From an uncultured Christensenella sp. (GTDB taxonomy: Bacteria; Bacillota; Clostridia; Christensenellales; Pumilibacteraceae), in contig CAJTNI010000005.1 in the NCBI GenBank assembly GCA_910577945.1, positions 1 to 64,000 on the forward strand: DNA of 64,000 bases. The letters run 5' to 3'. Each line of letters opens with the position of its first letter. Position 1 is the first letter of the stretch. The notes under the pieces are model-generated. The model worked only from the letters and a program-made list of their open reading frames with translations. It had not been told where the DNA came from and did no database searches. The position numbers and the translations under genes were made by a program. Positions 6,909 to 21,243 of this stretch are shown here, in pieces.

Positions 6909-8063
6909 ATGCTCGTAGGCATACGCGACGGAATAAAACTCGTCGGAATATCCATAGTTGCGTTTTGCGCGGTGTTCGTGTGCGCGTTCTTTTTGAATTT
7001 TTACGTGGACGTGCAAACCGTTGAGAATGCCGTTACCGAGCAAATGCGCCCGCTGTACGACGCGCAGCTCGCCACGGCGCGATTTACCTGCGCGATTACG
7101 GGCGGGTTTTTGGCGGTTGTCACCGCCGTTATGCTCGCGTTTTATATCAAGCTGTACGTGGACGGGAACGGCGAGCGCATAGGTATTTTGAAGGCGCTCG
7201 GGTACTCGGACGGGCGGCTCGCGCTCGGGTTTTGGGTGTTCGGGCTTAGCGTGCTTATAGGCGCGACGGCGGGCTTGTGCGTGGGGTATGCGTCGATGCC
7301 CGCGATTTACAAGCAACTGACGATAGACGGCTTGCCGAACGTGCCTGTGCGATTTAACGCTTGGCTGCCGATTGCTTTGGTTATCGCGCCGACGGCGTTG
7401 CTGACGGCTTCCGCGTGCCTTTACGCGTATTTTTACGTGCGCAAGCCCGTAATGCGGCTTTTGCGCGGCAGGACGGATATTACGAAAAAGTCGGACAAGC
7501 ATAAAAAGTCGAGCAGGACGATAAGCAAGGATGGGCGTTTTTTGCTGCAAATGTGCTTTGCCGTGCTGCGTTCCAAAAAAGCGTCGGTATTTTTCGTGGC
7601 GTTCTCGAGCTTTTGTTTTTCCGCTATGGTGCAAATGGGCGCGTCCATGTACGACATGGATTCGGGAACTATGGGATTGATGATTTTGCTTATAGGCGTG
7701 ACGCTCGCCGCCGTGTCCATGATAATGGCAGTTACAACGGTAGTGAACGGCAACGCCGCAAGCATAGCGCTAATGCGCGCGTTCGGGTATTCGGACGGAC
7801 AGTGCGCGCTGTCCGTGCTCGGCGGGTATACGCCGTTCGCTTTAATCGGGTTTATCGTCGGCACGGCGTATCAGTACGGATTGCTGCGGATAATGGTAGA
7901 CCTGTTGTTTGCAGACGTTGCGGAAATGCCGGCGTATTCTTATGACGTCGCGCTGACTTTTATCGTGTTTGCCGTGTTTGCGGCGGCGTACGCCGCAGTT
8001 ATGGGCGTATATGCCGTCAGGCTGAAAAGAATATCGATAAAAGCGATAATGCTCGAAAACTAA
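6909..8063 (+). CDS. ABC transporter permease, FtsX-like
   Basis: Polytopic membrane protein. It is translationally coupled to the ATPase (taaaATG). There is an FtsX-like C-terminal 3-TM bundle. Confidence 0.7.
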   Translation: MLVGIRDGIKLVGISIVAFCAVFVCAFFLNFYVDVQTVENAVTEQMRPLYDAQLATARFTCAITGGFLAVVTAVMLAFYIKLYVDGNGERIGILKALGYSDGRLALGFWVFGLSVLIGATAGLCVGYASMPAIYKQLTIDGLPNVPVRFNAWLPIALVIAPTALLTASACLYAYFYVRKPVMRLLRGRTDITKKSDKHKKSSRTISKDGRFLLQMCFAVLRSKKASVFFVAFSSFCFSAMVQMGASMYDMDSGTMGLMILLIGVTLAAVSMIMAVTTVVNGNAASIALMRAFGYSDGQCALSVLGGYTPFALIGFIVGTAYQYGLLRIMVDLLFADVAEMPAYSYDVALTFIVFAVFAAAYAAVMGVYAVRLKRISIKAIMLEN

Positions 8064-8782
8064 TTGCCGCAGCGTTCCGTCGCGCGTTTGCGTACGTCCG
8101 ATACTCGTTTGTTCATTATTCTTCTGCCGATATTTTCGTACATGAATTTTTTGACGCCGCGGTATTTCTGCGAATATCGCGCGTACAGCGCGTCGGGCGA
8201 GTCGAATACGCCCAAATCCTCCACGACGGCGGCTTGCTGTATCGCGGTGGCTTTGCCGCGCCAATCAACTTTAAGCTCTGAAAAATCATCGACCGCAACC
8301 GCGTAATCGAAAAAACGCCCGCGCTGCTCGGGGAACAGCGCGCGCAAGCCCGATAGGTAGATTTTGTCGGTGATGACGCCCTCCAAGCTCAGCCATTCGT
8401 CGTCGTACAATACCTCCGCCCAGGTATGCAAAATCAGCGGCGGGGCGAGCTTCGCCATGAGCTTGGGCATCAGCCCGCGTTGAAATTCCTTGGTCACCTT
8501 AGACCCGTGCAGCCTGCACGGCACGTCGACGGCGCGCAGCAGCGAAGTAATAAGCGTAGCCTTGGTATTGCACTGTCCGAACCCGTCCGCCAAAACCTGC
8601 GAGGCAGTCAGGCTGTCGTACTTGTTGTAGCCCAACGGAACGGCGTTTTGCACATAGTCGTAAATCGCGCCGATTTTGTCGTACGTATCGTTCAGGCTTG
8701 CCCATTTTTGCGCCGCAATCAGCTCGACGATTTCGCGCGCGTCGTAGTTTAGCATTTTCGTACTTTTCAAATAATCGTTCAT
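8060..8782 (-). CDS. Transglutaminase-like superfamily protein (cytoplasmic)
   Basis: Candidate Cys/His/Asp triad: GQCNTKATL ... ILHTWAEV ... D. Confidence 0.55.
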   Translation of the reverse strand: MNDYLKSTKMLNYDAREIVELIAAQKWASLNDTYDKIGAIYDYVQNAVPLGYNKYDSLTASQVLADGFGQCNTKATLITSLLRAVDVPCRLHGSKVTKEFQRGLMPKLMAKLAPPLILHTWAEVLYDDEWLSLEGVITDKIYLSGLRALFPEQRGRFFDYAVAVDDFSELKVDWRGKATAIQQAAVVEDLGVFDSPDALYARYSQKYRGVKKFMYENIGRRIMNKRVSDVRKRATERCGN

Positions 8783-8827
8783 AATCGAAATTCCTCGTTT
8801 GAGATTACTTCGATTATACGCCGTGTA

Positions 8828-9574
8828 TTACGAAAAAACTTTCAAAAATTCGCTGTCTTTTATGAGCGCGGTCGCGGTCATACCCATTTGTTTTTTTACC
8901 GTTGCGGCAAAGTGCGAAGGGCTGTCGAACCCCGCGGACATTGCCGCGTCCGTGACGCTCTTGCCGTCGAGCAATGCGTAAAACGCTTTTTCGAGCATGT
9001 GGTAGAGGATATAGCTTTTGAGCGGCACGCCCGCTTGCTCGCGGAATAAATGCGACAGACGGTCGGGCGAGAGCGACAGCTTTTTCGCAAAGCTTTTTAT
9101 CGTGTGGTCGTAGCAATCGCAGTGCCGCAAAATTGTCAAAAGCTCGGCGATACGCGCGTCCGTTTCCGATACGCTGCGCCTGACGCCCAAAAATGCGGCA
9201 AATTCGGCTATAAACGACAGGTAGCGGAATTTGTCGACGGTTTCGGTCAGCGCGGCGGCAGCGCGCCGTAGCGGCTCGATTTCGTCGTCGAACACGGCGT
9301 AGTCGCCGCCGATTTTCGCCGACAGCTCCTTTGCGAATTGCGAGCTCGGTTGAATCAAAACGGAGAGGCAAAGCGCGCCGTCGCACGAAAATTCATGCGG
9401 CGCGTTTTTGTTTACGACTATACATTTGCCTACGACGCGCTCGTTGCCGACGGTTACGCACAGCTGCGAGGTCAGCCCGATAAAGGCTTGTATCACGCAG
9501 TGCGAGTGCGGCGCGGCGTTTATGCGGTCGCTTATAAACGCGATATTGTCTTTGTCCCAAAACACTTTAAGCAT
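8828..9574 (-). CDS. AraC family transcriptional regulator
   Basis: C-terminal double HTH: SFAKKLSLSPDRLSHLFREQAGVPLKSYILYHMLEKA ... AMSAGFDSPSHFAATVKK. Confidence 0.8.
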   Translation of the reverse strand: MLKVFWDKDNIAFISDRINAAPHSHCVIQAFIGLTSQLCVTVGNERVVGKCIVVNKNAPHEFSCDGALCLSVLIQPSSQFAKELSAKIGGDYAVFDDEIEPLRRAAAALTETVDKFRYLSFIAEFAAFLGVRRSVSETDARIAELLTILRHCDCYDHTIKSFAKKLSLSPDRLSHLFREQAGVPLKSYILYHMLEKAFYALLDGKSVTDAAMSAGFDSPSHFAATVKKQMGMTATALIKDSEFLKVFS

Positions 9575-9580
9575 ACGTAA

Positions 9581-9609
9581 ATTTTAGCACAATGCCCGAC
9601 TTTAATCAA
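9581..9609 (-). promoter_or_regulatory. Leaderless promoter for AraC gene
   Basis: On the minus strand: TTGATT-17-TAAAAT-6-ATG. Confidence 0.5.
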
Positions 9610-9625
9610 CGCTTTGCGGCAACAC

Positions 9626-9658
9626 AAAAGCAGGCTGCGTGAGCGGCCTGCTTTGTCG
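9626..9658 (-). terminator. Terminator after flotillin gene
   Basis: 9-10 bp stem aaaagcaggc / gcctgctttt, followed by a T-rich tail on the minus strand. Confidence 0.55.
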
Positions 9659-9678
9659 CTTTGTATTAAGAGAGTGGT

Positions 9679-11142
9679 TTACGCTTTGGGCGCGCGCGGC
9701 TTTTTGTCGGTCTTGACCTTGTCGTTCGCAGTCGTCGCCGCGGGGGCGGGGAGCGCCGTTTTGTCGTTGACCTTGCCGAGGTAGTCGGGCAGCTCCATGC
9801 CGTTCATCTTGAACAGCTCGTTGAGCGGGGGTACTGCGCCTAGCATGCCCGAGAGGAAGCCCGCCGTGGTGGACTTGCCGTTTTGCATGCTGTCCCATAC
9901 CGTAATCTTGTCGATTTGCAGGTTCTTGATTGCGTTGACCTGCATTGAGACGAGGTCCTCGATTTTGTCGGCGATGAGCATTTTAACTGCGTCGTCGCTC
10001 GTGCCGCCCGTCGCGGATATAATCTTGCCGAAGCCTTCGGCTTGCTTGCTGAGTATTTCGAGCTGACCCTTAGCTTCCGCGACGCGCTTTGCGTATTCCG
10101 CATCCGCTTCGCCCTGCGCGCGGCGTCTGATACGCTCGGCTTCCGCCTCCGCCTCGATTTCCGCCTTTTGTTTTTGAATTTCGGCGTTGACGAGAACGTC
10201 CGCTTCGAGCGTGGCGCGTTCGCGCTTGGCACGCTCGGTTTCCGCGAGCTGCTCGGCTTTGTACGCGTCCTCGTTGGCTTTGGCTTGCGCGATAAACTCC
10301 GCGCTTTGCGCCGTGCGGTTAGCTTCCGCCTCCGCCTCGCGCAGCCTTGCGTTGGATTGGCTTATGAGCACTTTGGATTTGTTTTCGCCCTCGATTGCCT
10401 GCGAGTTTGCCGCGGCAACCTGAATGCGCTGTTCCTTTTGCGCGTTGGCTTGACCGATAGCGCCGTCGCGGTCTTTTTCCGCGACCGACTTTTTGGCGTC
10501 GTTTATGACCTTTGCCGCAGCCTCTTTACCGAGCGCCTCGATATAGCCCGATTCGTCGCTGATATCCGTTACGTTAACGTTGATAAGCCGCAAGCCTATC
10601 TTTTTGAGCTCGCCCTCGACGTTTATGGAAACGGCTTCCAAGAACTTGTCGCGGTCGGTGTTGATTTCCTCGATGTCCATCGTGGCGATAATGAGTCTGA
10701 GCTGACCGAGAATGATATCCTCGGCGAGCCGCTGTATCTCGTTGAGCGGGAGAGAGCGCAGGCGTTCCGCCGCGTTCTGCATGACGCCCGGTTCGGTGGA
10801 GATACCGACGGTAAAGCGCGAGGGCACGTCGATACGAATGTTCTGGCGCGAAAGCGCGTTTTTGAGGTCGATTTGGATTGATATGGGGGTCAAGTCCAAA
10901 AAGCTGTAAGACTGAATGAACGGGACTATGAACGCCGCGCCGCCGTGAATACACCGCGCCGAGCGTGCCGTGCCGTCGGCAGCCTTGCCGACCTTACCGT
11001 AGATAACCATGACCTTGTCGGACGGGCACTTTTTGTAGCGCGTCGCAAGCATGGCGATGATGAGAATGAACAGCAATATCGCCGCGACAACTATCGCTAT
11101 GATACCGCCAATCATTCCGCTTGAAAGGGATAAGAGGTTCAT
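9679..11142 (-). CDS. Flotillin / SPFH (band 7) domain protein, YqiK/FloA-like
   Basis: N-terminal TM, SPFH domain, long Ala/Glu-rich coiled coil (AQAKANEDAYKAEQLAETERAKRE...). RBS aaaggagaaa. Confidence 0.85.
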   Translation of the reverse strand: MNLLSLSSGMIGGIIAIVVAAILLFILIIAMLATRYKKCPSDKVMVIYGKVGKAADGTARSARCIHGGAAFIVPFIQSYSFLDLTPISIQIDLKNALSRQNIRIDVPSRFTVGISTEPGVMQNAAERLRSLPLNEIQRLAEDIILGQLRLIIATMDIEEINTDRDKFLEAVSINVEGELKKIGLRLINVNVTDISDESGYIEALGKEAAAKVINDAKKSVAEKDRDGAIGQANAQKEQRIQVAAANSQAIEGENKSKVLISQSNARLREAEAEANRTAQSAEFIAQAKANEDAYKAEQLAETERAKRERATLEADVLVNAEIQKQKAEIEAEAEAERIRRRAQGEADAEYAKRVAEAKGQLEILSKQAEGFGKIISATGGTSDDAVKMLIADKIEDLVSMQVNAIKNLQIDKITVWDSMQNGKSTTAGFLSGMLGAVPPLNELFKMNGMELPDYLGKVNDKTALPAPAATTANDKVKTDKKPRAPKA

Positions 11143-11190
11143 ATATTTCTCCTTTAAAAAATTTTTGACTTTGTTTAGTTATCCGTACGG

Positions 11191-11973
11191 TTACTTTATA
11201 TCTTCGATAACGATGGACGGCTTTTTGTACCTTTGCACAAGCAGCACGTTCGCGCCCGTGTGACCTATGACTTTGATTTCCGCGGTCGTGGGTATCGGCT
11301 CGCTGCTATCGGTAACTGCGTCGTATTCGGCGTAGCGTTCTTGAATGAGCACGTTTATTTTTCCGAAGCCCGTTCTGTTGGGGGGAATTGTGAGATACAC
11401 CGTGCCCACTTTGCCGACCGCGTTGTTGGGGTTGAGATTGCCGTTGCCTTGCAGCTTTTCCATGCCGATTAACGCGCCAGCCATAGCGCACGCCGCGGCA
11501 AACCCGCTTGCGACCGAGATTAAGATTGCGCCCCACAGCGGCAGGGCGGTGTAGCAAAGCGTGTAGCACATCCAGCTGCCGATTGTGATAAACGCGATTA
11601 TCGAGCGCAAGCTCAACAGCCTTAGCCCGAACGGCATTGTCGCGCCGTGCTCGGTCGCGCCGCCGTGCGAAAGCTCCGCATCCGACGCTCCGCCCACTTG
11701 ATAGTCGGAAATTCCGCCGTCGAGCGCCGAAGATAGTCCGCCGCTTATATCGGAATCGCCGTCGAACGCGCCGTCCATACCGCCGTCATAATCGGTAATT
11801 CCGCCGCCGCCGATATCGGACGCGTCCGCATCGGTCACGCCGCCGCCCGAAATATCCGAATCGGACGCGCCGCTCGCAAGCATGAGTATTATTTGTATTA
11901 TGAGAAATAAGCTCGCGGCGCATGCGATAATAAACGTCGCTTGCTGAAAAACCGTCATACTATTCCACCACAT
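11191..11973 (-). CDS. NfeD-like membrane protein (YqiJ-like), flotillin partner
   Basis: Multi-TM N-terminal region, Gly/Asp-rich linker, C-terminal OB-fold-like beta domain (KVIGHTGANVLLVQRY). The ATG at 11973 has RBS aggagg and lies immediately upstream of the flotillin gene. The upstream TTG at 12006 is less likely. Confidence 0.55.
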   Translation of the reverse strand: MWWNSMTVFQQATFIIACAASLFLIIQIILMLASGASDSDISGGGVTDADASDIGGGGITDYDGGMDGAFDGDSDISGGLSSALDGGISDYQVGGASDAELSHGGATEHGATMPFGLRLLSLRSIIAFITIGSWMCYTLCYTALPLWGAILISVASGFAAACAMAGALIGMEKLQGNGNLNPNNAVGKVGTVYLTIPPNRTGFGKINVLIQERYAEYDAVTDSSEPIPTTAEIKVIGHTGANVLLVQRYKKPSIVIEDIK

Positions 11974-11996
11974 TGCGCTTTTGCCTCCTACGTCGT

Positions 11997-12025
11997 ATTG
12001 TACCAAACTCAGCGCTTTTTGTCAA
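11997..12025 (-). promoter_or_regulatory. Sigma70 promoter of nfeD-flotillin operon
   Basis: On the minus strand: TTGACA-17-TACAAT. Confidence 0.55.
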
Positions 12026-12134
12026 TAGTCGGGTACTAATTTTACAGTTACATTATATATAACAAACATAACGGGATTATTACAAAAAGATTAAATTTAG
12101 ATTAAATCGCGACGTGGCGTCGGAGCGCAGGGCG

Positions 12135-12163
12135 TTGACAAATCGCGGCGCGTGCGCTATAAT
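12135..12163 (+). promoter_or_regulatory. Leaderless promoter of DUF3810 gene
   Basis: TTGACA-17-TATAAT-6-ATG(12170). Confidence 0.55.
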
Positions 12164-12169
12164 TTACGC

Positions 12170-13492
12170 ATGCGTAAAAATCGTATAACGGCGGGAACGC
12201 TCTTAAACGCACGGCGCGCGCGGCTTACGACGCGGTTTTTCGGCTTGCGTTATGCGGCGCGCGTAAAACGCAGGGTTTCGCTTGCGCCCGCCGTGCTTGC
12301 GGCGGTAGCGGCGGGCTTGCTCGTTCCGTTGGTGATAATGAACGCGCTGCGCATAGACGCGGGGCGCGCGGAATGGTGGTCGCGCACCGTCGCGCGCGCG
12401 TACGAGCGAGCGGTGGGCGCGCTTACGTCGTGGCTGCCGATATCGGTGTACGAGCTGTTCGTAGTGATTTTAATCGCCGCGGGGCTGTTTCTTTTCGGGC
12501 GGCTCGTAATCAATCTGTGTCGCGGCGCGTTTATGAGAATAGTGACGGGCGTGCTCGCCGTCGCAGTGGGCGCGGCGTACGTCGGCAACGCGTACATGCT
12601 GTCCATGGGGTTCGGATATTATCGCCGCAAAATGCCGTTGCCGCAAGCGGGCGCGGATTATCGCGTGGAAAAGGTGATAGAGGTTGCCGAGTATTTTTTG
12701 AACGATTACAACGCGCTTGCGCAAAAGCTGCCGCGCGACGAAAACGGGTGCGTGATAAATCCGTACGGGTTCGACGGCACGGCGCGGCGCATCGCCGCCG
12801 AGTACGCCAAGCTGGACGACGGGTATTTCTCGCCGTATACGCCGAACGCGAAGCAGGTGGTCAACAGCTGGCTTATGTCGGACATGCTGATTACGGGCGT
12901 CACGTTTTTGCCGACGGGCGAGGCGAGCTTGAACGTCGGCGCGCCGCCGTCGGTAGTTACTTTCACAACGGCGCACGAGCTGGCGCACACGAAGGGCGTA
13001 CAGCGCGAGGGCGACGCAAACCTCATCGCGCAGTACGTAATGCTTTCGTCCGAGGACGAATACCTGCGGTACTGCGGTTATTACAACGCGTTCGGCGCGG
13101 TGATGTCGGCAATCGTTTTGGCAATGGGCGACGAGCTGCAATACGCAACCGAATACAACAGGCTGGTCGGCGAAATGACCCCGCTGATTTCAGTCGAAAA
13201 ATTGTACGCCAATAAGTATTGGAGCTCGCAGCCCGATATTATCGGAAAGCTCGGCGAGTTCTTTAACGACTTGTATTTAAAGTTCAACGGCGCGAGCAAC
13301 GGCACGGGCAGCTACGGCGACGGCAACCACACGGACGCAATACGCCCGACCGACCCGAGCACGGGCGAGCCGATGACAGACCCCGACACGGGCAAGCCCG
13401 TGTATATCCCCGTGTACTCGACGCTGCAAAAAGTATTCTTTTATCTGTACGAACAAAAAACCGCACGGTTTGGAATAATCAAGGAGTGTTGA
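12170..13492 (+). CDS. DUF3810-like membrane protein with HExxH zinc-metallopeptidase-like motif
   Basis: N-terminal TM segments. TAHELAHTKG carries the HExxH motif. Confidence 0.55.
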   Translation: MRKNRITAGTLLNARRARLTTRFFGLRYAARVKRRVSLAPAVLAAVAAGLLVPLVIMNALRIDAGRAEWWSRTVARAYERAVGALTSWLPISVYELFVVILIAAGLFLFGRLVINLCRGAFMRIVTGVLAVAVGAAYVGNAYMLSMGFGYYRRKMPLPQAGADYRVEKVIEVAEYFLNDYNALAQKLPRDENGCVINPYGFDGTARRIAAEYAKLDDGYFSPYTPNAKQVVNSWLMSDMLITGVTFLPTGEASLNVGAPPSVVTFTTAHELAHTKGVQREGDANLIAQYVMLSSEDEYLRYCGYYNAFGAVMSAIVLAMGDELQYATEYNRLVGEMTPLISVEKLYANKYWSSQPDIIGKLGEFFNDLYLKFNGASNGTGSYGDGNHTDAIRPTDPSTGEPMTDPDTGKPVYIPVYSTLQKVFFYLYEQKTARFGIIKEC

Positions 13493-14901
13493 CAAAACGC
13501 TACGGTTATGATAAACTCAATCGTATGATAAGGGAAGATAATAAATCGCGAGGGGAAACGACTGTATACGAGTACGATACAAACGGGAATATACTGACAA
13601 AAACAGTGTATGCGTTTGCATTGGGCGAAATAGTCGATAGAGCTCCGATAGCGCAAATCCCTTATGCGTATAAGGCGGACGGATGGCGCGACCGCATGGC
13701 GGAGTACAACGGCGAAAAATGCGAGTACGACGCGATAGGCAATCCTACCAAGTACAGAGGCGTAATAACGCAGTTTAAATACTGCGGCAAAATGACCGCG
13801 TACGGCGGCAATACGTACGCATACGACGCAAACGGCGACCGAATCGGAAAAACGGTAAACGGCGTGGAAACGCGGTTTATAACGGCGTCGGGTAAAGTAA
13901 TTCGCAGTATAACAAACGGCGTTGTGACCGATTTCTTTTACGATGCGGGCGGACTTGCGTGCATACGGCATGACGGCTTGGATTACATAGTCCGCAAAAA
14001 CGTGTTTGGCGACGTAACGCATATATACGACAAAGCGGGCAAGCTCGCGGCACGGTACGCGTATGACGTTTGGGGAAAGTGTAAAGTGCTTAACGCAAAC
14101 GGCGTGGAGGATGCCGACGTTCTGTCGATAGGCAACATAAACCCGATACGATACAGAGGGTATTATTTCGATACGGAAAGCAGGCTGTATTACCTGCACG
14201 CACGCTACTATGACCCGGAAACGGGGAGGTTTATATCCGCAGATAACACTCGCTACGTAACCCCCGATGCCGTAAACGGGCTTAATCTGTACGCATACTG
14301 TGCCGATAACCCCGTAATGAACGTAGACCCTAGCGGACATTCGGTGCTGGCGATATTTTTGACGCTGGCGATAGGGGCGTTATTGGGCGGATTGAGCGGC
14401 GGAATAACTTCGCTTGTTTCCGACGGAGATTTTTGGTCGGGTTTTAGTGGAGGCTTGGTTTCGGGCTTAATTTCCACTGCCGGCTTGGGTTTAGCTGTTA
14501 CAATGGGCGGATTGGGGGGAGTTGCTTTATCTGCATTTTTTGGTTTTGGAGCATCGTTCACAGGTAGTATAGTGCAACAGGGATTTGCGAGTAATTGGAC
14601 GAGTTTTGATTTAAAGTCGGCTCGAATTTCAGGATACATAGGCATGACTATGGGAGCAGTTACATATGGACTGACAAACGGTTTTATGCGTGAGGCAGTG
14701 GGGGTGTTTGATAATATATTCGATAAGTCTATCGGCTTTGCGAGAAGATACGCTGAATTTATGTCTTATTCTGTTCCGTCTTTGGTAAGTACGCTGATAT
14801 TTAATTTGCCTGTTACAGTTGCGCAAACGATAATAGAAAGCGTAATCGGGTGCGGAAAATCCGATAAAAGTAAATCTTCATTGGTAGGGGGGATTATTTG
14901 A
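13486..14901 (+). CDS. RHS/YD-repeat protein C-terminal fragment with glycine-zipper membrane toxin tip (orphan polymorphic-toxin module)
   Basis: YD repeats (YEYDTNGNIL, YAYDANGDRIGK). RHS core end motif RYYDPETGRFISAD ... DNPVMNVDPSGH. After that comes a ~180-aa tail with GxxxG motifs and lower GC. The product is only ~470 aa and there is no N-terminal RHS region upstream. Confidence 0.75.
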   Translation: MLTKRYGYDKLNRMIREDNKSRGETTVYEYDTNGNILTKTVYAFALGEIVDRAPIAQIPYAYKADGWRDRMAEYNGEKCEYDAIGNPTKYRGVITQFKYCGKMTAYGGNTYAYDANGDRIGKTVNGVETRFITASGKVIRSITNGVVTDFFYDAGGLACIRHDGLDYIVRKNVFGDVTHIYDKAGKLAARYAYDVWGKCKVLNANGVEDADVLSIGNINPIRYRGYYFDTESRLYYLHARYYDPETGRFISADNTRYVTPDAVNGLNLYAYCADNPVMNVDPSGHSVLAIFLTLAIGALLGGLSGGITSLVSDGDFWSGFSGGLVSGLISTAGLGLAVTMGGLGGVALSAFFGFGASFTGSIVQQGFASNWTSFDLKSARISGYIGMTMGAVTYGLTNGFMREAVGVFDNIFDKSIGFARRYAEFMSYSVPSLVSTLIFNLPVTVAQTIIESVIGCGKSDKSKSSLVGGII

Positions 14902-15389
14902 AAAAAGAATTAAAAGTTGTGCCGTCTATGTTTTGGTTAATCGGCTCAATTGTTCTAATTATAAGTTTGTATTCAATCTTTATATTTTCGTATACATATC
15001 CGCCTGCCCGTCCCGATGAAATCTTTGACCATATATTATTGATATTTTGTACGGGCGTATTACCGACAGTGATATTTGTTACGGCAATACCGCGTGGTAT
15101 ATTTTCGGTAGTTACGATAAGCGAGCGCGGGGTAAGGCGTACGCTGTTTATGGGACGATTCAAGCTTGAAATGAGTTGGGAGGAAATGGCAGAGATGCGG
15201 TATTATCCTCGGCTGCTGCCGTTTGTATTCTTTTCCAAAACCTGCACATTGGACGGTATGTATTACGACAAAATAATAAAAAGGCGGGACGTTATACAGG
15301 TAACGCTGTCAAAGAAAGTATTGCAAGCGATACGGCAGAATACCAAAAAGGAAATAATAAACCTGCCCGAAAGCTATAACGAGCAATAA
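14898..15389 (+). CDS. Putative immunity protein (small 3-TM membrane protein) for the RHS toxin tip
   Basis: Immediately downstream of the RHS tip and overlapping its stop (TGA/ATG). Hydrophobic N-terminus. GC about 40%. Confidence 0.5.
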   Translation: MKKELKVVPSMFWLIGSIVLIISLYSIFIFSYTYPPARPDEIFDHILLIFCTGVLPTVIFVTAIPRGIFSVVTISERGVRRTLFMGRFKLEMSWEEMAEMRYYPRLLPFVFFSKTCTLDGMYYDKIIKRRDVIQVTLSKKVLQAIRQNTKKEIINLPESYNEQ

Positions 15390-15664
15390 AAGACACAAAG
15401 AGCTCTGCACAGTAATGCGTCGGGCTCTTTGCGTATGTCAAAGCTGATATTATACAAATGGTTAAATCACAGGTCTCAAAGTACTGAAATTGGAAAATGT
15501 AGTTTTTAACCGCTAAATTAATAGGAAAAGTGTGTTGGTATTCTAAAAAGTCTGTTATCTACGATTATATTTTCTGCGGAAAATTTATAATTAGTGTTTT
15601 GTTGATAGGCGTTGTGACTATTTGCTACAACTAAAAACAGTCGACACTTTTTGAATACTTTATT

Positions 15665-15710
15665 ATGCAATATTGCATTTATTGACATTTTATTTAAATT
15701 ATGCTAAAAT
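15665..15710 (+). promoter_or_regulatory. Promoter of SIR2-HerA operon with upstream perfect palindrome
   Basis: ATGCAATATTGCAT is a 14-bp perfect palindrome (15665-15678) abutting TTGACA-17-TAAAAT (15682-15710). RBS aaaggag precedes ATG 15770. Confidence 0.5.
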
Positions 15711-15769
15711 ATTAATGTCGCAAATAATTTTTTAATTGGATAGTCATTTCAATTACAAAGGAGATTCTG

Positions 15770-16768
15770 ATGAGAATTTATAACATAGATGAACAAAGGC
15801 AAGATGTGAAATCGTATTTGATTAAATGTTTATCGTCTAACAATATAAGTTTTTTGCTAGGGGCCGGATTTAGTACGCCATTTTTAAGGGTTCTAGGAGG
15901 CTTTGAAGAACGATTAACGGTTGCAATTGAATTAGGAGATGTAAAACAAATAGTGTTATTGGAAAAGGAGTTTTTTAATAATAGTATTTTACCGATTCTT
16001 AATCAAAAAAAATTAGACACTAATATGAAATATCGTGATAGTTTTTTAAATTCTATAAAGAACATTTTAGAAAAACGTCATAGTTCGGTTTTGCATAAAA
16101 TGTTTAATATTTTTACCACGAATTATGATGTGCTTATAGAACAATCTTTGGAACGTAATGCAATTGAATATTCTGATGGATTTTCTGGGCGACTTAATCC
16201 ATTGTATTCAACAACGAATTTTGGAAGAGTTATAAAAAAGACAAGTGCAATAGCTCACAAATCAACAGAAATAGTAACTGCAAATTTGCTAAAACTACAT
16301 GGCTCATTGAATTGGACACAAACAGATGCTGGCATTGCTTTTGAGAATTGTAACCAAAAGATTCAACGTGTAAAAAAGTGCTTACAAAATGACGATGAAT
16401 TTATGTGCACTTATGAAAAAGAGTTCTTAATTATCAACCCTAATAAGGAAAAATTTAACACAACTGTTTTAAATGCGAATTATTATGATCAATTAAGAAT
16501 TTTTGGAAATGAGCTCGAACAAAGGAATGCTCTTTTGTTAGTTTATGGATTTTCGTTTAATGATGAGCACATACGAACAATAGTAGAAAGAGCTTTAATT
16601 AATCCAACATTAACAGTAGTTATATTTGCATTTAGAAAATGGGATGAAGACGCATATAAAGAAAAATTTGACAAATATCACAATGTTGTTGTATTACGTA
16701 ATAGCGGCGAATTCAATATTGAAAGCGTATCGCGGTTTTTTAAGGAGATTGATAATGATATTGAGTGA
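15770..16768 (+). CDS. SIR2-like (SIR2_2/ThsA-type) NAD-dependent domain protein, defense-associated
   Basis: FLLGAGFS (GAGxS), FTTNYDVLIE (TTNYD), KLHGS (catalytic His), LLVYGFSFNDEH. The order and spacing match ThsA-type SIR2 domains. GC about 33%. Confidence 0.8.
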   Translation: MRIYNIDEQRQDVKSYLIKCLSSNNISFLLGAGFSTPFLRVLGGFEERLTVAIELGDVKQIVLLEKEFFNNSILPILNQKKLDTNMKYRDSFLNSIKNILEKRHSSVLHKMFNIFTTNYDVLIEQSLERNAIEYSDGFSGRLNPLYSTTNFGRVIKKTSAIAHKSTEIVTANLLKLHGSLNWTQTDAGIAFENCNQKIQRVKKCLQNDDEFMCTYEKEFLIINPNKEKFNTTVLNANYYDQLRIFGNELEQRNALLLVYGFSFNDEHIRTIVERALINPTLTVVIFAFRKWDEDAYKEKFDKYHNVVVLRNSGEFNIESVSRFFKEIDNDIE

Positions 16769-18524
16769 AGTTTTGAAAATAGGTGAAGTAAGAGAAGTAT
16801 ATGGACATAAAATCAAAGTTGGAATTTATAGCGAAAAAAATGTCGAATACTTAAATTATGACGGAATACCTATTAAAAATGTTGGAATAGGTAGTTTTAT
16901 CATTATCAGAAAAGGATTTTTAAATATAATAGGGAAGGTAGATGGAGAGTTTATAACTGCTACATCTTTAGAAAGTGGCTATGCGGAAAAAGGGCGTGGT
17001 ATAGCAAGAACATTAGATGTGTCTGTTTTAGGACATTTAGAAAACGATCAATTTGTATTTGGTGTTATTGAGCTTCCATTAATAGGTAACTTTGTATACA
17101 TTATAGATGAGAGCCTACAAAAGAATATTTTAGACCATCATTCGCAGTTTGCATTAAATTTAGGTACTTTGATAGAGTATGATAATTATCCATTTAAATT
17201 AGATTTGCAAGAATTGATATGCAGTCATATCGGAATATTTGGTAATACCGGTAGTGGAAAATCAAATACTCTAGCAAAGATATATACTGAACTATTTGAA
17301 AATTATTCTAGCAATCAACAGTTTAAAAAGAATTCAGCCTTTGTTTTTTTTGACTTAAATGGGGAATATAGAAATTCGTTTCCTAATGGTCATTATTATG
17401 AATTGAATTCAATTGAAAATGAAAAATATCCATTAAATGAGCGGTATTTAACAGATATTGAATTTTGGTCGGTTGTTTTACAGGCTTCGGAAAAAACACA
17501 AAAACCGTTCATAAATGAATGTATAAAAAATTATAAAAAATGTAAGCAATCATCAAATTATTTCACGACTCAAAAATTAAGCGAACTTGTTTTTTATAGT
17601 CAAAAGAACTATGGGGATATTAGGGCATTTATAATTCACATATTTACATGCTTAGAACTTGAAGATGAGATCATATCATTTGATGACAATGTAAGCATTG
17701 AGTATAAAAAACTTATAAGCAATACGCGTGGACAATTAGATTATTTGGCGACCTATAATGAATTGTTTGGTGACATGGATGACAAAGTTATTTCTGTAAG
17801 TCATCTAGATGATATCCAAATTTTTTCTTTAATTGTTTATTACACTTATTGTAAAGAATTAAATAAAGGAAAGATTTCGACTCAAAATATTATTCAATTA
17901 TTTAATAGGATGGATAAAATATTATCGGAATTGGGAAATATATTCGAATTCAAGGGTGATTGTCCAAATGAGCATGTTGTTATTATATCATTATTTAATT
18001 TAAATGCAGAATTGAAAAAGTTAGTGACTTATATAATATGTAGAGATAAATATGAGAGTCATAAAAGACATCGTGGAAATGAGCGATTGCAGTCATCCCT
18101 TCATCTAATTATTGAAGAAGCACATAATATCTTATCGTATGAATCCGCGCGCGAGAGTGAGGAGTGGAAGAATACTCGATTAGAAACATTTGAAGAAATT
18201 ATTAAAGAAGGAAGAAAATTCGGAGTTTTTTTGACTATTGCCAGCCAAAGGCCGGCGGATATTTCGGAAACAATTATCTCACAGTTACATAACTTTTTCG
18301 TTCATCGTTTAGTGAATGCTGAAGATTTAAAGCGGATTTATAAGTCTGTTGCATTTTCTGATTCTGTTTCTAATAATATGATTCCAATTTTACCAGCTGG
18401 TGGTTGTTTATTTTCAGGCATTGCGGCTAATTTCCCATTATTAGCAAAAATTGATTGTTTAGAGCAATCTATCGCGCCTAACAGTTCTAACGTTAATTTA
18501 ATAGATATTTGGGGATTAAAATAA
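16755..18524 (+). CDS. HerA/FtsK-like ATPase (DUF87), partner of SIR2
   Basis: Walker A IGIFGNTGSGKSNT, Walker B LIIEEAHNIL, HerA-like FGVFLTIASQRPADI. RBS aaggag lies 7 nt upstream of ATG 16755. It overlaps the SIR2 stop codon (translational coupling). Confidence 0.8.
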   Translation: MILSEVLKIGEVREVYGHKIKVGIYSEKNVEYLNYDGIPIKNVGIGSFIIIRKGFLNIIGKVDGEFITATSLESGYAEKGRGIARTLDVSVLGHLENDQFVFGVIELPLIGNFVYIIDESLQKNILDHHSQFALNLGTLIEYDNYPFKLDLQELICSHIGIFGNTGSGKSNTLAKIYTELFENYSSNQQFKKNSAFVFFDLNGEYRNSFPNGHYYELNSIENEKYPLNERYLTDIEFWSVVLQASEKTQKPFINECIKNYKKCKQSSNYFTTQKLSELVFYSQKNYGDIRAFIIHIFTCLELEDEIISFDDNVSIEYKKLISNTRGQLDYLATYNELFGDMDDKVISVSHLDDIQIFSLIVYYTYCKELNKGKISTQNIIQLFNRMDKILSELGNIFEFKGDCPNEHVVIISLFNLNAELKKLVTYIICRDKYESHKRHRGNERLQSSLHLIIEEAHNILSYESARESEEWKNTRLETFEEIIKEGRKFGVFLTIASQRPADISETIISQLHNFFVHRLVNAEDLKRIYKSVAFSDSVSNNMIPILPAGGCLFSGIAANFPLLAKIDCLEQSIAPNSSNVNLIDIWGLK

Positions 18525-18593
18525 ATTTAATATGGATTTTAACGCAAAAGAATTTATATCACAAAATGGGGGTTGTTCACGGTAAAACGTAAA

Positions 18594-19090
18594 ATGCGCA
18601 TTCTTTTTTCACCGACACTGGTTATTGGTTCGTTAATTGGTTTGTTTTCGTTAGTCGGCATTTATTTACAGTCGTATATGAACCATGTCGAATAGGATTT
18701 AAAGAACATATTGTTATATTTATTATTTGGACATTATGTTGCGTAGGATTAAGTATAGCCGGTGTCGTAACGGGAGCGCGAAAGGTATTTTGCATAATAA
18801 CGATAGATGAGACGGGAATATCTCGGTCGTTTTTAGGTGTGTTTTGCAAGCTGCACATGTCATGGGACAATATAGCGGAGATTTGTTACTTTACAGCGCT
18901 AGCTGAATTTTTGGTATTTTCGAAAAATAAAAAAGTGTCAACAATGACGTATAATAAAATGAGAATGGAGAAAGATGCTATTGAGATGACGATAAGCAGG
19001 CGTAGATACAGAGTAATTAAGCAATATTTACAGCAGCCGATAGTGGGCATGCCCGAAAAAGTCAAAGAACGTTTGGAGCGCGAAAAGTAA
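18594..19090 (+). pseudogene. Frameshifted paralog of the RHS immunity gene
   Basis: Frame 1 gives MRILFSPTLVIGSLIGLFSLVGIYLQSY..*, which aligns with MKKELKVVPSMFWLIGSIVLIISLYSIFIFSY. A second frame continues ...GISRSFLGVFCKLHMSWDNIAEICYF..., which aligns with ...GVRRTLFMGRFKLEMSWEEMAEMRYY... The single frame break is near 18685. Confidence 0.55.
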
Positions 19091-19160
19091 AATAAATGAA
19101 AAATCAAACGACAGTGAAATAATAATTACCAAAAGTTGTTAATCGGCACTTAACCGAGAT

Positions 19161-19192
19161 AGCCCGTATCAATAACGATTCGGGCTTTTTCG
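19161..19192 (+). terminator. Rho-independent terminator
   Basis: agcccg-tatcaataacgatt-cgggct followed by ttttc. Confidence 0.55.
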
Positions 19193-19305
19193 TGCGAAAA
19201 AAGTCGTTCTAAGCGCTTATATAAAAAATTTCTAAAAATATATACTCATTGTAAGTCAATATCCAACAAAAGCGACCGATAGTTCTATATACTTACCGTA
19301 GGCAT

Positions 19306-19755
19306 ATGGAAAATGACGTAGTTAATGGATTTAAAACAACGCTCGCTGAGTTGATGTCGGAAAACGGTCATAGCGCGACCAGCTTGGGGCGCGCTATCGA
19401 CGTGAATATGTTTGTCGTGCGCAAATGGTTGATGCGTGCAAAAGACGTCAAACTGAAATCGCTTATAAAAATAGTAAATTATTTCGGTTGCTCGTTGGAA
19501 TATTTATGCGGTAAGACGGATGAAATTATTACGTACAAGCCGCAGCCGTTGCCGCCTTTTCGCGATTGGCTGAAAACGGTTTTACATAATTGCAATAAAT
19601 CGTCTTACAAGCTGATAAACGACACCAAGATTTCTTCGTCGCAGTACAACAGCTGGTTACACGGCGGAATGCCGATGCTGACTACGCTCGAAACAGTGGC
19701 GGAGTATTTGGACGTCACTCTCGATTATTTGGTGGGGCGTCATGCCGATAAATAG
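19306..19755 (+). CDS. XRE-family transcriptional regulator with two tandem HTH domains
   Basis: Two Cro/C1-type HTH repeats: LAELMSENGHSATSLGRAIDV... and LKTVLHNCNKSSYKLINDTKIS...LDYLVGR. GC about 45%. Confidence 0.65.
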   Translation: MENDVVNGFKTTLAELMSENGHSATSLGRAIDVNMFVVRKWLMRAKDVKLKSLIKIVNYFGCSLEYLCGKTDEIITYKPQPLPPFRDWLKTVLHNCNKSSYKLINDTKISSSQYNSWLHGGMPMLTTLETVAEYLDVTLDYLVGRHADK

Positions 19756-19786
19756 ATAATCGCACACATAATTAAATATTTCTTTT

Positions 19787-20116
19787 GTGTATACGGAGGG
19801 GGAAATGACGGGACAAAAGCAAAACGCATTCGTACACGAGCTTGTGTTGATATTGTATCATTCTAAATTCAGGGATAAATATTTAAGCGCCGAAACGGTT
19901 GCCGGCATTGATAAGTTTATGGATATGTGTCGGGCTAAGGATATGCTGGATAATTCGCAAACCGCATTTGTCGTGGAGCATTATTACGATATACGCAACG
20001 GTTTGACGATAGGCGAACGCCGCGCGCATGTGGGGTTGAGCGACGCCGCGTTGTATCGGTTTAGACTCAAAATAGCAAGCAGTTTAATGAATTGCTTAAA
20101 TACGATAAATACATGA
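19787..20116 (+). CDS. Hypothetical small protein, possible sigma-70 region-4-like HTH (ArpU/Tn916 Orf7-like)
   Basis: The C-terminal segment NGLTIGERRAHVGLSDAALYRFRLKIASS resembles region 4 HTHs. The start may be the ATG at 19805. Confidence 0.35.
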   Translation: MYTEGEMTGQKQNAFVHELVLILYHSKFRDKYLSAETVAGIDKFMDMCRAKDMLDNSQTAFVVEHYYDIRNGLTIGERRAHVGLSDAALYRFRLKIASSLMNCLNTINT

Positions 20117-20188
20117 TTCCGTCGTTATTTAACGTAATAAAAAAATCGGCATTTTCGCCGATTTTCAGGGGTGCGTGAGCGTTGCGCA

Positions 20189-20428
20189 TCACAGCAAAAT
20201 TTTGGGGTCGTACTCGGGTTTTTTGAATACGACGGAGTCGGGCTTGTCGGCGATTTCCTTTCGGAATACGTCCTGCCATTCCTCGGCGGTGTAGTCCTCG
20301 ATGGTGCACGTAATCCAATGCTCGTCCGCGCCGAGGTCTCGGGACAGCACTTCCACAAGGTCGCGCGCGAGTTTTTCCTTTTGCGCTTGCGTTCTGCCTT
20401 CCAGCATTTTAATCGAGATATTGGGCAT
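20189..20428 (-). CDS. 4-oxalocrotonate tautomerase family enzyme
   Basis: MPNISIKMLEGRTQAQKEKLARDLVEVLSRDLGA with N-terminal Pro1. RBS aagagga is present. Confidence 0.7.
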   Translation of the reverse strand: MPNISIKMLEGRTQAQKEKLARDLVEVLSRDLGADEHWITCTIEDYTAEEWQDVFRKEIADKPDSVVFKKPEYDPKILL

Positions 20429-21122
20429 TTTCGGTTTCCTCTTGATTTTTAATTTCTTGTTTCGTTTCCCGTTGCGCACGGGCGTCCGACGCTTTTTTAA
20501 GCGGAGGAAGCAGCTTTAAACGCAACAGCAGCGGAATCATTGCCACGGTAACGGCTATATTGATTGCGGCTACGCCTAGCTGCATTGCGCGCGACGGTCC
20601 GAGGTATACCCAAAACGATTTGTTGATGTACGATTTTAGTTTGAGGTAGTATCTGCACCATACCCATATTGCAAACGAGTCGAACAGTAGCGTATACAGC
20701 ACAGAGCATACCACGCCCGCAAACACGAATTTTACGATGTAGCTTTTGACTGGTAGCTTAAAGCAAAACGCCGCCGTCACGCCGAAGAGCACGCAACCGA
20801 GGGTAAGCAGCGGGTTTATTGGTCCACGTGGAATTATCACCGCGCCGAGTACGTCCGATACAAAGCATACCGTGCCGCCCCCGATAGGACCGACGACTGC
20901 GGCGGCAATCAGCCATATCACGTAAATCAACGTGATTTTAAACGAGTCGGTCAAGGTAAGACACTGTCCGATTAACTTCATCACGATTGATAGTGCGGCA
21001 AACAAGGCGGTGTATGCGAGCCACTTTGTAGTGCCGAAGGTGAGCTGTTGCGAGCGGACTTTACGCGATGAAGTATTCAGCTTGTCCGGAGTCGCAATTT
21101 CCTGTTGAGCGTTTTTACTCAA
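20409..21122 (-). CDS. ECF-transporter S-component-like membrane protein
   Basis: 5-6 TM helices. TTKWLAYTALFAALSIVMK is typical of ECF S components. The start is uncertain: TTG at 21122 with RBS aaaggagaag, or GTG at 21185. Confidence 0.45.
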   Translation of the reverse strand: MSKNAQQEIATPDKLNTSSRKVRSQQLTFGTTKWLAYTALFAALSIVMKLIGQCLTLTDSFKITLIYVIWLIAAAVVGPIGGGTVCFVSDVLGAVIIPRGPINPLLTLGCVLFGVTAAFCFKLPVKSYIVKFVFAGVVCSVLYTLLFDSFAIWVWCRYYLKLKSYINKSFWVYLGPSRAMQLGVAAINIAVTVAMIPLLLRLKLLPPLKKASDARAQRETKQEIKNQEETENAQYLD

Positions 21123-21243
21123 TGTCGGGCTTCTCCTTTGCGACCCGAAGGCCGCGTGTATTTTGTTGTAAGCCAAGTATATCACACGCGGCGGCGCAAA
21201 GTAAAGCGAATGAAAGGGGAGTGACGGTGAAATTTAGCGCACG

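Follow-up and report, generated by a model that had tools for sequence, protein, structure and literature searches.

Gene content of the locus

We analyzed 64,000 nucleotides (nt) of contig CAJTNI010000005.1 from an uncultured Christensenella sp.; this whole stretch is referred to below as the window. Our subject is an open reading frame (ORF) of 471 residues which encodes the C-terminal end of an RHS protein, closes with a glycine-rich tip and is followed directly by a candidate immunity gene, imm1 (Table 1). An earlier note, made from the letters of the window, had placed this ORF against a DUF3810 gene with its GTG start overlapping the DUF3810 stop codon, and these coordinates proved exact. 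The stop codon, TGA at 13490-92, is overlapped by the GTG (13486-88) together with the next codon, TTG (13489-91), and gene callers begin the RHS ORF at that TTG (13489). The remainder of the window is ordinary chromosome with GyrB/GyrA-type topoisomerase subunit genes, lgt, a nicotinate phosphoribosyltransferase gene, GH31 glycosidase genes and others.

A truncated RHS protein

YD repeats (RHS_repeat PF05593, E 2.5e-9) and a core domain ending in a DPxG motif, the two features that define RHS proteins, are both present in the ORF. The core model Rhs_assc_core (TIGR03696) covers residues 193-285 (14062-14340; E value 1.9e-22, and 79.5 bits where the cutoff is 32.5), and the core-end motif RYYDPETGRF...DNPVMNVDPSGH was found, including D243 and D281. 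This is what the earlier note had described, namely only the last YD repeats and the end of the RHS core. A whole shell comprises several hundred to more than 1,000 residues of repeats and an N-terminal plug or delivery domain, while only about 285 residues of shell are kept here. The ORF scores 30.6 bits with the RHS_core model NF041261, whose cutoff is 2,000, and it aligns with solved Rhs and Tc shells in PDB at their C-terminal ends only.

A continuous full-length RHS ORF was not seen upstream, since the translated frame before 13480 holds no RHS-like sequence. Likewise, five related RHS proteins, four with lengths of 1,583-2,266 aa plus a 715-aa partial, were compared with the window by tblastn; matches were limited to 13483-14883, no RHS body was found elsewhere in the window, and the fragment corresponds to the last 340-470 residues of the query proteins. 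A further comparison is with L037, a 2.7-kb metagenome contig that is 98.9% identical to window positions 13480-15444 (22 mismatches in 1,965 nt, no indels). Similarity between the two breaks sharply at 13479/13480, and upstream of this point L037 carries RHS repeats for 571 nt where the window has DUF3810 sequence. Because this near-identical copy runs on upstream as RHS body, the copy in the window is truncated. These results, together with the edges of related cassettes described below, bear out the earlier view of an orphan module without an N-terminal RHS body upstream.

Other relatives are more distant. Scans of contigs from genome and metagenome collections with the RHS ORF returned relatives of at most 56% identity, save one 44-residue match to the core end at 70%. 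The closest relatives of the core fragment, proteins P0001 and P0002 (62% identity), carry different tips.

Orphan rhs-CT/rhsI modules are recognized by a partial core with a full C-terminal toxin (CT) but no N-terminal region or export signals, by an immunity-family gene directly after it, and by a position downstream of a full-length main rhs gene. The ORF shows the first of these, and the 163-aa ORF that overlaps the RHS stop codon belongs by homology to a putative immunity family. No main rhs gene was found in the window; one lies upstream of orphans in the related contigs L036 and L038. A further mark of such modules is a core stretch nearly identical to that of a main rhs gene in the same genome, through which recombination could occur; the longer gene of L037, 98.9% identical, comes from another sample.

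The C-terminal tip

The tip (residues 286-471) comprises 186 aa, of which 16.7% are glycine. The earlier note described it as dominated by GxxxG glycine zippers. Motifs of the type small-xxx-small-xxx-small are enriched (18 compared with 9.7 ± 3.0 in shuffled sequences, a count of 18 being reached in 13 of 2,000 shuffles) and one zipper is conserved, but strict GxxxG motifs (8 compared with 5.0 ± 1.8) are not significant alone.

Used by itself as a word-index homology query, the tip had no match. An exhaustive HMMER search of 1.84 billion representative proteins identified a rare tip family of 49 clusters at E ≤ 1e-3, 28 of them at E ≤ 1e-10, and this family also forms the C-termini of proteins of 2,038, 1,877, 2,266 and 1,583 aa. 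The RHS protein of the window itself falls in a 90%-identity cluster represented by a 79-aa fragment and was therefore not returned by either the tip or the whole-protein search. Among 22 aligned family members the zipper G319-x3-G323-x3-G327 varies hardly or not at all; G341, G345, Q365 with a near-invariant glycine after it, and R421 are also conserved.

An AlphaFold (AF2) model of the tip shows five long helices forming one hydrophobic bundle over about 180 aa, with a predicted local distance difference test score (pLDDT) of 82.6. Hydropathy marks helices 1-3 and 5 as strongly hydrophobic, and only two charged residues occur in the first 90. The zipper glycines lie in predicted helices 2 and 3, consistent with the definition of a glycine zipper as (G/A/S)xxxGxxxG in a transmembrane helix. 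Structural neighbors of the model are integral membrane proteins only, which, with the predicted hydrophobic bundle, supports the membrane-inserting tip suggested earlier. As no further tip sequence follows the bundle, any toxicity must sit in the bundle.

The tip appears to lack similarity to described enzymatic toxin domains, since no Pfam family matches it. PDB sequence and profile searches and Foldseek against PDB likewise gave no meaningful match, and no enzyme family or fold was matched, in line with the earlier view that the tip does not resemble nuclease or deaminase tips. One candidate, Ntox23 (PF15528), was rejected: its E value for the tip is 0.078 (13.5 bits against a cutoff of 26.2), only one of the 22 members matches it, and this family from Bacteroidetes RHS toxins is listed as all-beta (PMC3482391) whereas the tip is predicted to be all-alpha.

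Two RHS-like salivary proteins of mosquitoes, SGS1 and SGS4 (PDB 8fjp_A and 9on3_A), align with residues 220-369 of the ORF. This alignment extends about 85 residues beyond the core end into a hydrophobic Gly/Ala-rich stretch like the first helices of the tip, and both proteins have hydrophobic helices directly after their RHS core. The match is probably compositional, and we do not claim homology between the tip and these proteins.

The adjacent candidate immunity gene

Hydropathy peaks of the imm1 protein, centered at residues 13-28 and 50-67, indicate two transmembrane helices, and an AF2 model places helices at residues 11-33 and 42-63. By the positive-inside rule we infer an N-in/C-in orientation with a cytoplasmic C-terminal domain of about 95 aa. 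A small membrane protein had been expected as the immunity partner downstream of the tip; the two helices and conserved synteny agree with this expectation, while the putative soluble domain of about 95 aa had not been foreseen.

The imm1 homologue in L037 is 98% identical. Homologues with 30-45% identity were identified directly 3' of tip-family genes in six further contigs (L035, L036, L051, L052, L038 and L001). Members of the family follow full-length RHS genes (L035, L051), longer or cut genes (L037, L001) and orphans (L036, L038, L052/L053), and the order of tip and immunity gene is kept in every related locus examined, seven besides the window. Across these loci the tips are 26-46% identical and the immunity proteins 30-48%. 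Such paired synteny with parallel divergence looks like the signature of a toxin/immunity family. We therefore mark the 163-aa protein as the candidate cognate immunity protein, since all related loci examined have its homologue after a tip-family gene.

A strain-variable island

Same-species contigs from many samples were recovered by exact look-up of a neighboring SPFH protein. One of these, the 104.6-kb scaffold L041, is 100% identical to window positions 8001-21142. In five others (L042-L046) the matches cover 8001-13467 and resume from 20134 on, the aligned segments being 91-99.8% identical and only about 29 nt apart. The RHS fragment abuts the DUF3810 gene because it forms the left edge of this strain-variable 6.67-kb island, which the earlier note had not seen.

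In strains without the island the DUF3810 protein ends in ...EQKTAR*, and the insertion sits just before that stop codon. With the island, the DUF3810 frame gains seven codons (FGIIKEC*, 13468-13492) and stops at a TGA of RHS-derived sequence. The G+C fraction is 0.55-0.57 in the flanks, 0.50 in the core fragment, 0.44 in the tip, 0.40 in imm1, 0.29 in the SIR2-HerA genes that come next, 0.37 in a second immunity-family remnant (imm2) and 0.41 from the helix-turn-helix (HTH) gene to the end of the island. No recombinase gene was found in the island by a Pfam scan, nor were direct or inverted repeats found at its flanks, and no relatives were found in viral contigs. Five contigs from different samples encode an identical imm1 protein, in the same context every time. 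Horizontal acquisition of an island whose left end is a headless RHS cassette, inserted at the 3' end of the DUF3810 gene in part of the strains of a single species that is probably a gut member of the Bacillota, is the best explanation of these findings.

Behind imm1 lies a nested antiphage cassette in which adjacent genes for SIR2 and a HerA (DUF87) ATPase match defense models, the arrangement by which SIR2-HerA systems are recognized; NCBIfam antiphage equivalog models also match these genes, below their cutoffs. The remnant imm2 follows. Its translation shows no start codon over the stretch from the upstream stop to 18839, and at the amino acid level it is 48% identical to a 174-aa immunity-family gene of L001 and 32-38% identical to those of L051, L036, L052 and L038. 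That L001 gene lies upstream of the L001 orphan. SIR2-HerA thus sits between the intact imm1 and the 5'-truncated imm2, so one small island pairs putative interbacterial with antiphage defense. The HTH regulator is 38-43% identical to HTH_3 genes found right after RHS arrays in L001, L039 and L051. For the last gene, a 109-aa ORF, no match was found in Pfam, PADLOC or PHROG. That this ORF might be a truncated sigma-like gene, such as relatives have after their HTH gene, was considered and rejected on comparison.

Table 1. Features of the RHS locus, with positions in the window unless another contig is named
Feature	Position	Strand	Evidence or remark
DUF3810 gene, chromosomal flank	12152..13492	+	Pfam DUF3810, E 2e-54
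Strain-variable island, 6,666 bp	13468..20133	.	Present in some strains; others have ~29 nt (CTAAACGTGCCGCACATTTTCGTAATGCG)
Orphan (5'-truncated) RHS C-terminal ORF, GTG start, 471 aa	13486..14901	+	Pfam, TIGR03696, tblastn, comparison with L037
RHS shell fragment, aa 1-285: last YD repeats and Rhs-associated core, ending in DPSG(H)	13486..14340	+	TIGR03696, PF05593
Putative toxin tip, aa 286-471: glycine-zipper, predicted all-helical, hydrophobic, without Pfam match	14341..14898	+	
Promoter-like site TTGACA-17-TAAACT with TG extension	13489..13517	+	10/12 hexamer matches
Copies of the shared edge element	window 13489-13527; L001 703-741; L038 10085-10123; L040 ~155-195; L037 2541-2580		
imm1, candidate cognate immunity gene, 163 aa; TTG start overlaps RHS stop	14898..15389	+	Synteny, two predicted transmembrane helices
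Nested SIR2-HerA antiphage cassette	15445..18592	+	PADLOC, Pfam, NCBIfam
SIR2	15770-16768	+	PADLOC E 2e-64; Pfam SIR2_2
HerA	16626 or 16755 to 18524	+	PADLOC E 4.8e-136; Pfam DUF87
imm2, second immunity-family paralogue without 5' end and start codon	18593..19093	+	Homology, translation
HTH (Cro/C1-type) regulator	19306..19755	+	Pfam HTH_26, HTH_3; PHROG transcriptional regulator/repressor families
109-aa ORF, last island gene	19787..20116	+	

The 5' edge of the cassette

The cassettes in L001, L038 and L040 and a cassette stump in L037 start in common at the same TTGACAA, with unrelated sequence before it, and similarity between the window and the longer gene of L037 begins 9 nt before this shared TTGACAA. 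TTGACAA and TATGATAAA do not vary among the six copies aligned, whereas the 17-nt spacer does, and the upstream sequences are unrelated; in the five orphan copies the element reads TTGACA-17-TAAAYT and stands at the 5' edge or within 9 nt of it. An ATG occurs 7 nt past the -10 element in all five cassette copies (in the window ATG 13525, M14), where the longer gene of L037 has TTG. The annotated starts of P0001 and P0002 are the Met matching M14 of the window. Not every orphan uses the TTGACAA edge: a 466-aa orphan in L038 and P0013 in L036 begin elsewhere.

Promoter calls in this work are consensus matches, and a consensus match is no proof of function. The promoter reading of the cassette edge is a hint, not proof: a conserved YD-repeat peptide is encoded by these very bases, and one ancestral cassette may have passed on the shared edge. 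A perfect consensus sigma-70-type site, TTGACA-17-TATAAT, is located at 12135-12163, just 5' of the DUF3810 gene. Transcription of imm1 could occur by read-through from this site, from the internal site or from both; since the native terminators are now situated past the island, the promoter-like site before DUF3810 could drive transcription on through the RHS fragment and imm1.

Related loci and the history of the island

Three related contigs (L038, L039 and L051) share a gene order of a large serine recombinase, a full-length RHS gene (2,304 or 2,266 aa), an immunity gene, a homologous HTH gene and sigma-like genes, with orphan cassettes after the immunity gene in L038/L039. Within 1-15200 of L038/L039 and 1464-13153 of L051, regions that represent a recurring integrative element, the full-length RHS gene adjoins the divergently oriented recombinase gene; L038 additionally has PhD/ParE and KilA-N genes. 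RHS fragments occur in arrays in L036, L038 and L052, and in L036 and L038 these arrays are downstream of the main rhs gene. The island in the window looks like an internal piece of such a recombinase-RHS-immunity-HTH-sigma element. Genes of the related L001 element matched no PHROG structural families, and we do not call it a prophage.

The similarity between the window and L037 stops at 15444. In L037, positions 2537-2704, 3' of its immunity gene, hold a stump consisting of a cassette start (TTGACAAAGCATGACGGTTATGATAAACT) fused to the last ~33 codons of a tip; the tip part is 93.8% identical to window 14790-14885. This stump speaks for internal deletions inside cassette arrays. Because L037 has a cassette stump just where the similarity ends, the AT-rich SIR2-HerA genes appear to have taken the place of most of a second cassette in the window, including the cognate tip of imm2, and imm2 would accordingly be the remnant of that second cassette.

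Tips of several other clostridial RHS proteins (P0001, P0078, P0094, P0107 and P0002) have a Gly/Ala-rich hydrophobic start and then a distinct soluble domain. This soluble domain contains a conserved His-rich stretch in P0001 (HSPDHVHLRG) and P0094 (HDPTHVHISG), and an HE(x)GH metallopeptidase-like motif in P0002 (HEIGH) and P0107 (HEFGH). Such sequences suggest that the Gly/Ala-rich start is a shared membrane-entry module of these clostridial tips.

Interpretation and alternatives

We consider it likely that the ORF is part of an orphan rhs-CT/immunity cassette with a probable membrane-depolarizing tip. Those parts of the earlier interpretation that could be tested were all supported. Enclosure of a C-terminal tip by the RHS shell, and its cleavage at the DPSG motif, are established for Rhs and Tc proteins. 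In the full-length carriers of the tip family (1,600-2,300 aa) the shell would enclose the tip, cleave it off at DPSG/H and deliver it into a neighboring cell. The five hydrophobic helices, arranged around the conserved GxxxGxxxG, would then insert in the cytoplasmic membrane of the target and collapse the membrane potential, and the 163-aa protein with its two predicted transmembrane helices would neutralize the toxin within the membrane. The copy in the window is undeliverable because it lacks the N-terminal body and an export signal. Most likely, the present value of the cassette is protection against neighbors that fire the full-length toxin of the L037 type, and it most likely also serves as a silent spare tip that could recombine onto a full-length rhs gene.

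Some observations weigh against this interpretation. The window contains no main rhs gene, and with DUF3810 as upstream neighbor the locus departs from the classical layout, in which an orphan follows the main rhs gene. The AF2 model of the imm1 protein is poor overall (pLDDT 46) and unusable for a fold search. Finally, the RHS part differs from L037 by 9 nonsynonymous and 7 synonymous changes and imm1 by 4 and 1; these counts give no clear sign of purifying selection and are too few to show whether selection acts.

One alternative, which we regard as improbable, is that a larger integrative element has decayed and left its middle piece as the island, the RHS fragment being an unexpressed leftover of a deletion, so that only SIR2-HerA and perhaps imm1 matter. 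The recombinase-RHS-immunity-HTH series of L038, L039 and L051, of which the window retains only the part from the 3' end of RHS through HTH, is consistent with such decay, as are the visible truncation of imm2 and the failure to find a recombinase gene or flanking repeats. Nonsynonymous differences from L037 are at least as numerous as synonymous ones, and no canonical ribosome-binding site is properly spaced from any start codon of the fragment. However, the break lies 9 nt from an edge common to four independent orphan cassettes, which a break placed at random in a ~6-kb gene would do with a chance of ~0.2-0.5% by a rough estimate. The 471-codon frame and imm1 are intact, with no indels relative to L037, and imm1 is identical in five contigs from different samples. 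Decay would, moreover, dispute the present use of the cassette only and is compatible with a toxin/immunity reading of its parts.

Another possibility, somewhat less probable still, concerns the tip alone: its glycine-rich helices might serve for membrane entry or anchoring, or be aimed at a membrane protein or lipid carrier, with no ion leakage. The clostridial tips P0001, P0094, P0078 and P0107, where a hydrophobic start precedes a soluble domain, make the hydrophobic part look like a delivery module, and the conserved polar residues Q365 and R421, near or before a conserved glycine, could be functional sites. Tde1, a type VI secretion system (T6SS) DNase, is reported to need its glycine zipper for translocation and not for toxicity (PMC10240207). 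The whole tip of about 180 aa is, however, modeled as one five-helix unit with nothing after the bundle, no enzyme family or fold matches it, and its immunity partner is itself a predicted membrane protein, as with known ionophore toxins (PMC11630599).

The least probable alternative is that the fragment is expressed alone from the conserved internal promoter-like site, acting as an intracellular toxin which, with its membrane immunity protein, forms an addiction pair that stabilizes the island including SIR2-HerA. The coincidence of the cassette edge with a TG-extended TTGACA-17-TAAACT, whose hexamers are invariant in six copies while the spacer varies, points in this direction. So does the ATG 7 nt past the -10 element in five cassette copies, as opposed to TTG in the main gene of L037, which fits a leaderless mRNA; gene callers begin P0001 and P0002 at that ATG. 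Some glycine-zipper toxins are also toxic when acting from the cytoplasm, as reported for EsxX (PMC12744356). We think it very doubtful that the cassette edge is a working promoter giving a leaderless mRNA from ATG 13525, and that orphan tips in these gut Bacillota are expressed headless rather than being silent spares. If they were, the headless pair could be a membrane toxin/immunity addiction module locking a mixed island of interbacterial immunity and SIR2-HerA into the chromosome. Against this stand the facts that promoter consensus matches are not functional evidence, that the conserved bases double as the conserved YD-repeat peptide (Y-D-K), that the common boundary could descend from a single ancestral cassette, and that a Met is found at the same position in at least one longer RHS copy (P0006, a 715-aa partial with RHS body upstream).

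Relation to known systems

Orphan rhs-CT biology has been described in enterobacteria (Poole et al. 2011, PMC3150448; Koskiniemi et al. 2014, PMC3967940), including an orphan tip as a recombination reservoir in Salmonella (PMC3967940). Like the enterobacterial rhs-CT/rhsI orphans, the cassette studied here combines an RHS core fragment, a complete polymorphic C-terminal toxin and an adjacent putative immunity gene, lacks the N-terminal body, normal initiation and export signals, and has homology that could permit recombination onto a full-length gene. Unlike them, it belongs to a Gram-positive-type gut bacterium and occurs by itself next to DUF3810, where it forms one edge of a strain-variable island of 6.67 kb. 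Its retained core is long (~285 aa), and its 5' edge, at a promoter-like TTGACA, is no more than 9 nt away from those of related cassettes.

Tse5 (PA2684) of Pseudomonas aeruginosa is an Rhs protein with an encapsulated pore-forming CT and the immunity protein Tsi5 (PMC10684867). Membrane partition, pore formation and depolarization by Tse5-CT were shown by experiment, and enclosure of the CT in the shell and its cleavage were shown as well (PMC10684867). Both proteins have an Rhs shell ending in a self-cleavage motif and then a non-enzymatic C-terminal fragment, whose membrane activity is predicted in our case. In PDB comparisons 8cp6_B aligns with residues 219-284 only, that is with the Rhs core, and searches with the tip gave no match. 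Unlike the tip described here, Tse5 is a T6SS effector of a Gram-negative bacterium, and the gene in the window is truncated.

Ionophore toxins of contact-dependent inhibition (CDI), the CdiA-CT EC93 family, are predicted five-helix bundles with polymorphic membrane CdiI immunity proteins (PMC11630599). By description the tip is similar to them in its predicted five-helix membrane-spanning bundle and putative glycine zipper, and in both cases the toxins and their hydrophobic immunity partners have diverged in parallel, down to about 30% identity. The carriers differ, RHS here as opposed to CdiA, as do the phyla, and the tip has no separate entry domain. In the Bacillota, TelE and TspA are glycine-zipper membrane-depolarizing toxins of the LXG/type VII secretion system (T7SS) kind. 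EsxX is described as another glycine-zipper depolarizing LXG/T7SS toxin of Bacillota (PMC12744356). Toxins of this kind share with the tip a Gram-positive interbacterial setting, a C-terminal glycine-zipper membrane-depolarizing domain, here predicted, and membrane immunity proteins. They differ in having an LXG/T7SS carrier and not RHS, and no sequence homology between them and the tip was established.

Significance for RHS toxins of gut Bacillota

Orphan rhs-CT/immunity cassettes, Rhs-borne pore-formers and glycine-zipper depolarizing toxins are already known, and the findings leave the understanding of RHS and depolarizing toxin systems, both well known, unchanged. New are the tip and immunity families without a Pfam match, a stand-alone site with a documented empty counterpart, the nested SIR2-HerA cassette and the promoter-like cassette edge. 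The RHS biology of gut Bacillota has, to our knowledge, barely been explored by experiment. For these bacteria the present analysis defines a family of RHS toxin tips together with a partner immunity family. The locus is also a clean natural case, its empty site being documented, in which one small island carries a putative immunity gene against neighbors and SIR2-HerA against phages. There is, further, a testable hint of an internal promoter at the cassette boundaries of this lineage. Should the tip be confirmed as a pore-former, it would serve as a compact five-helix model of the way in which very hydrophobic cargo is stored in an RHS shell and released from it.

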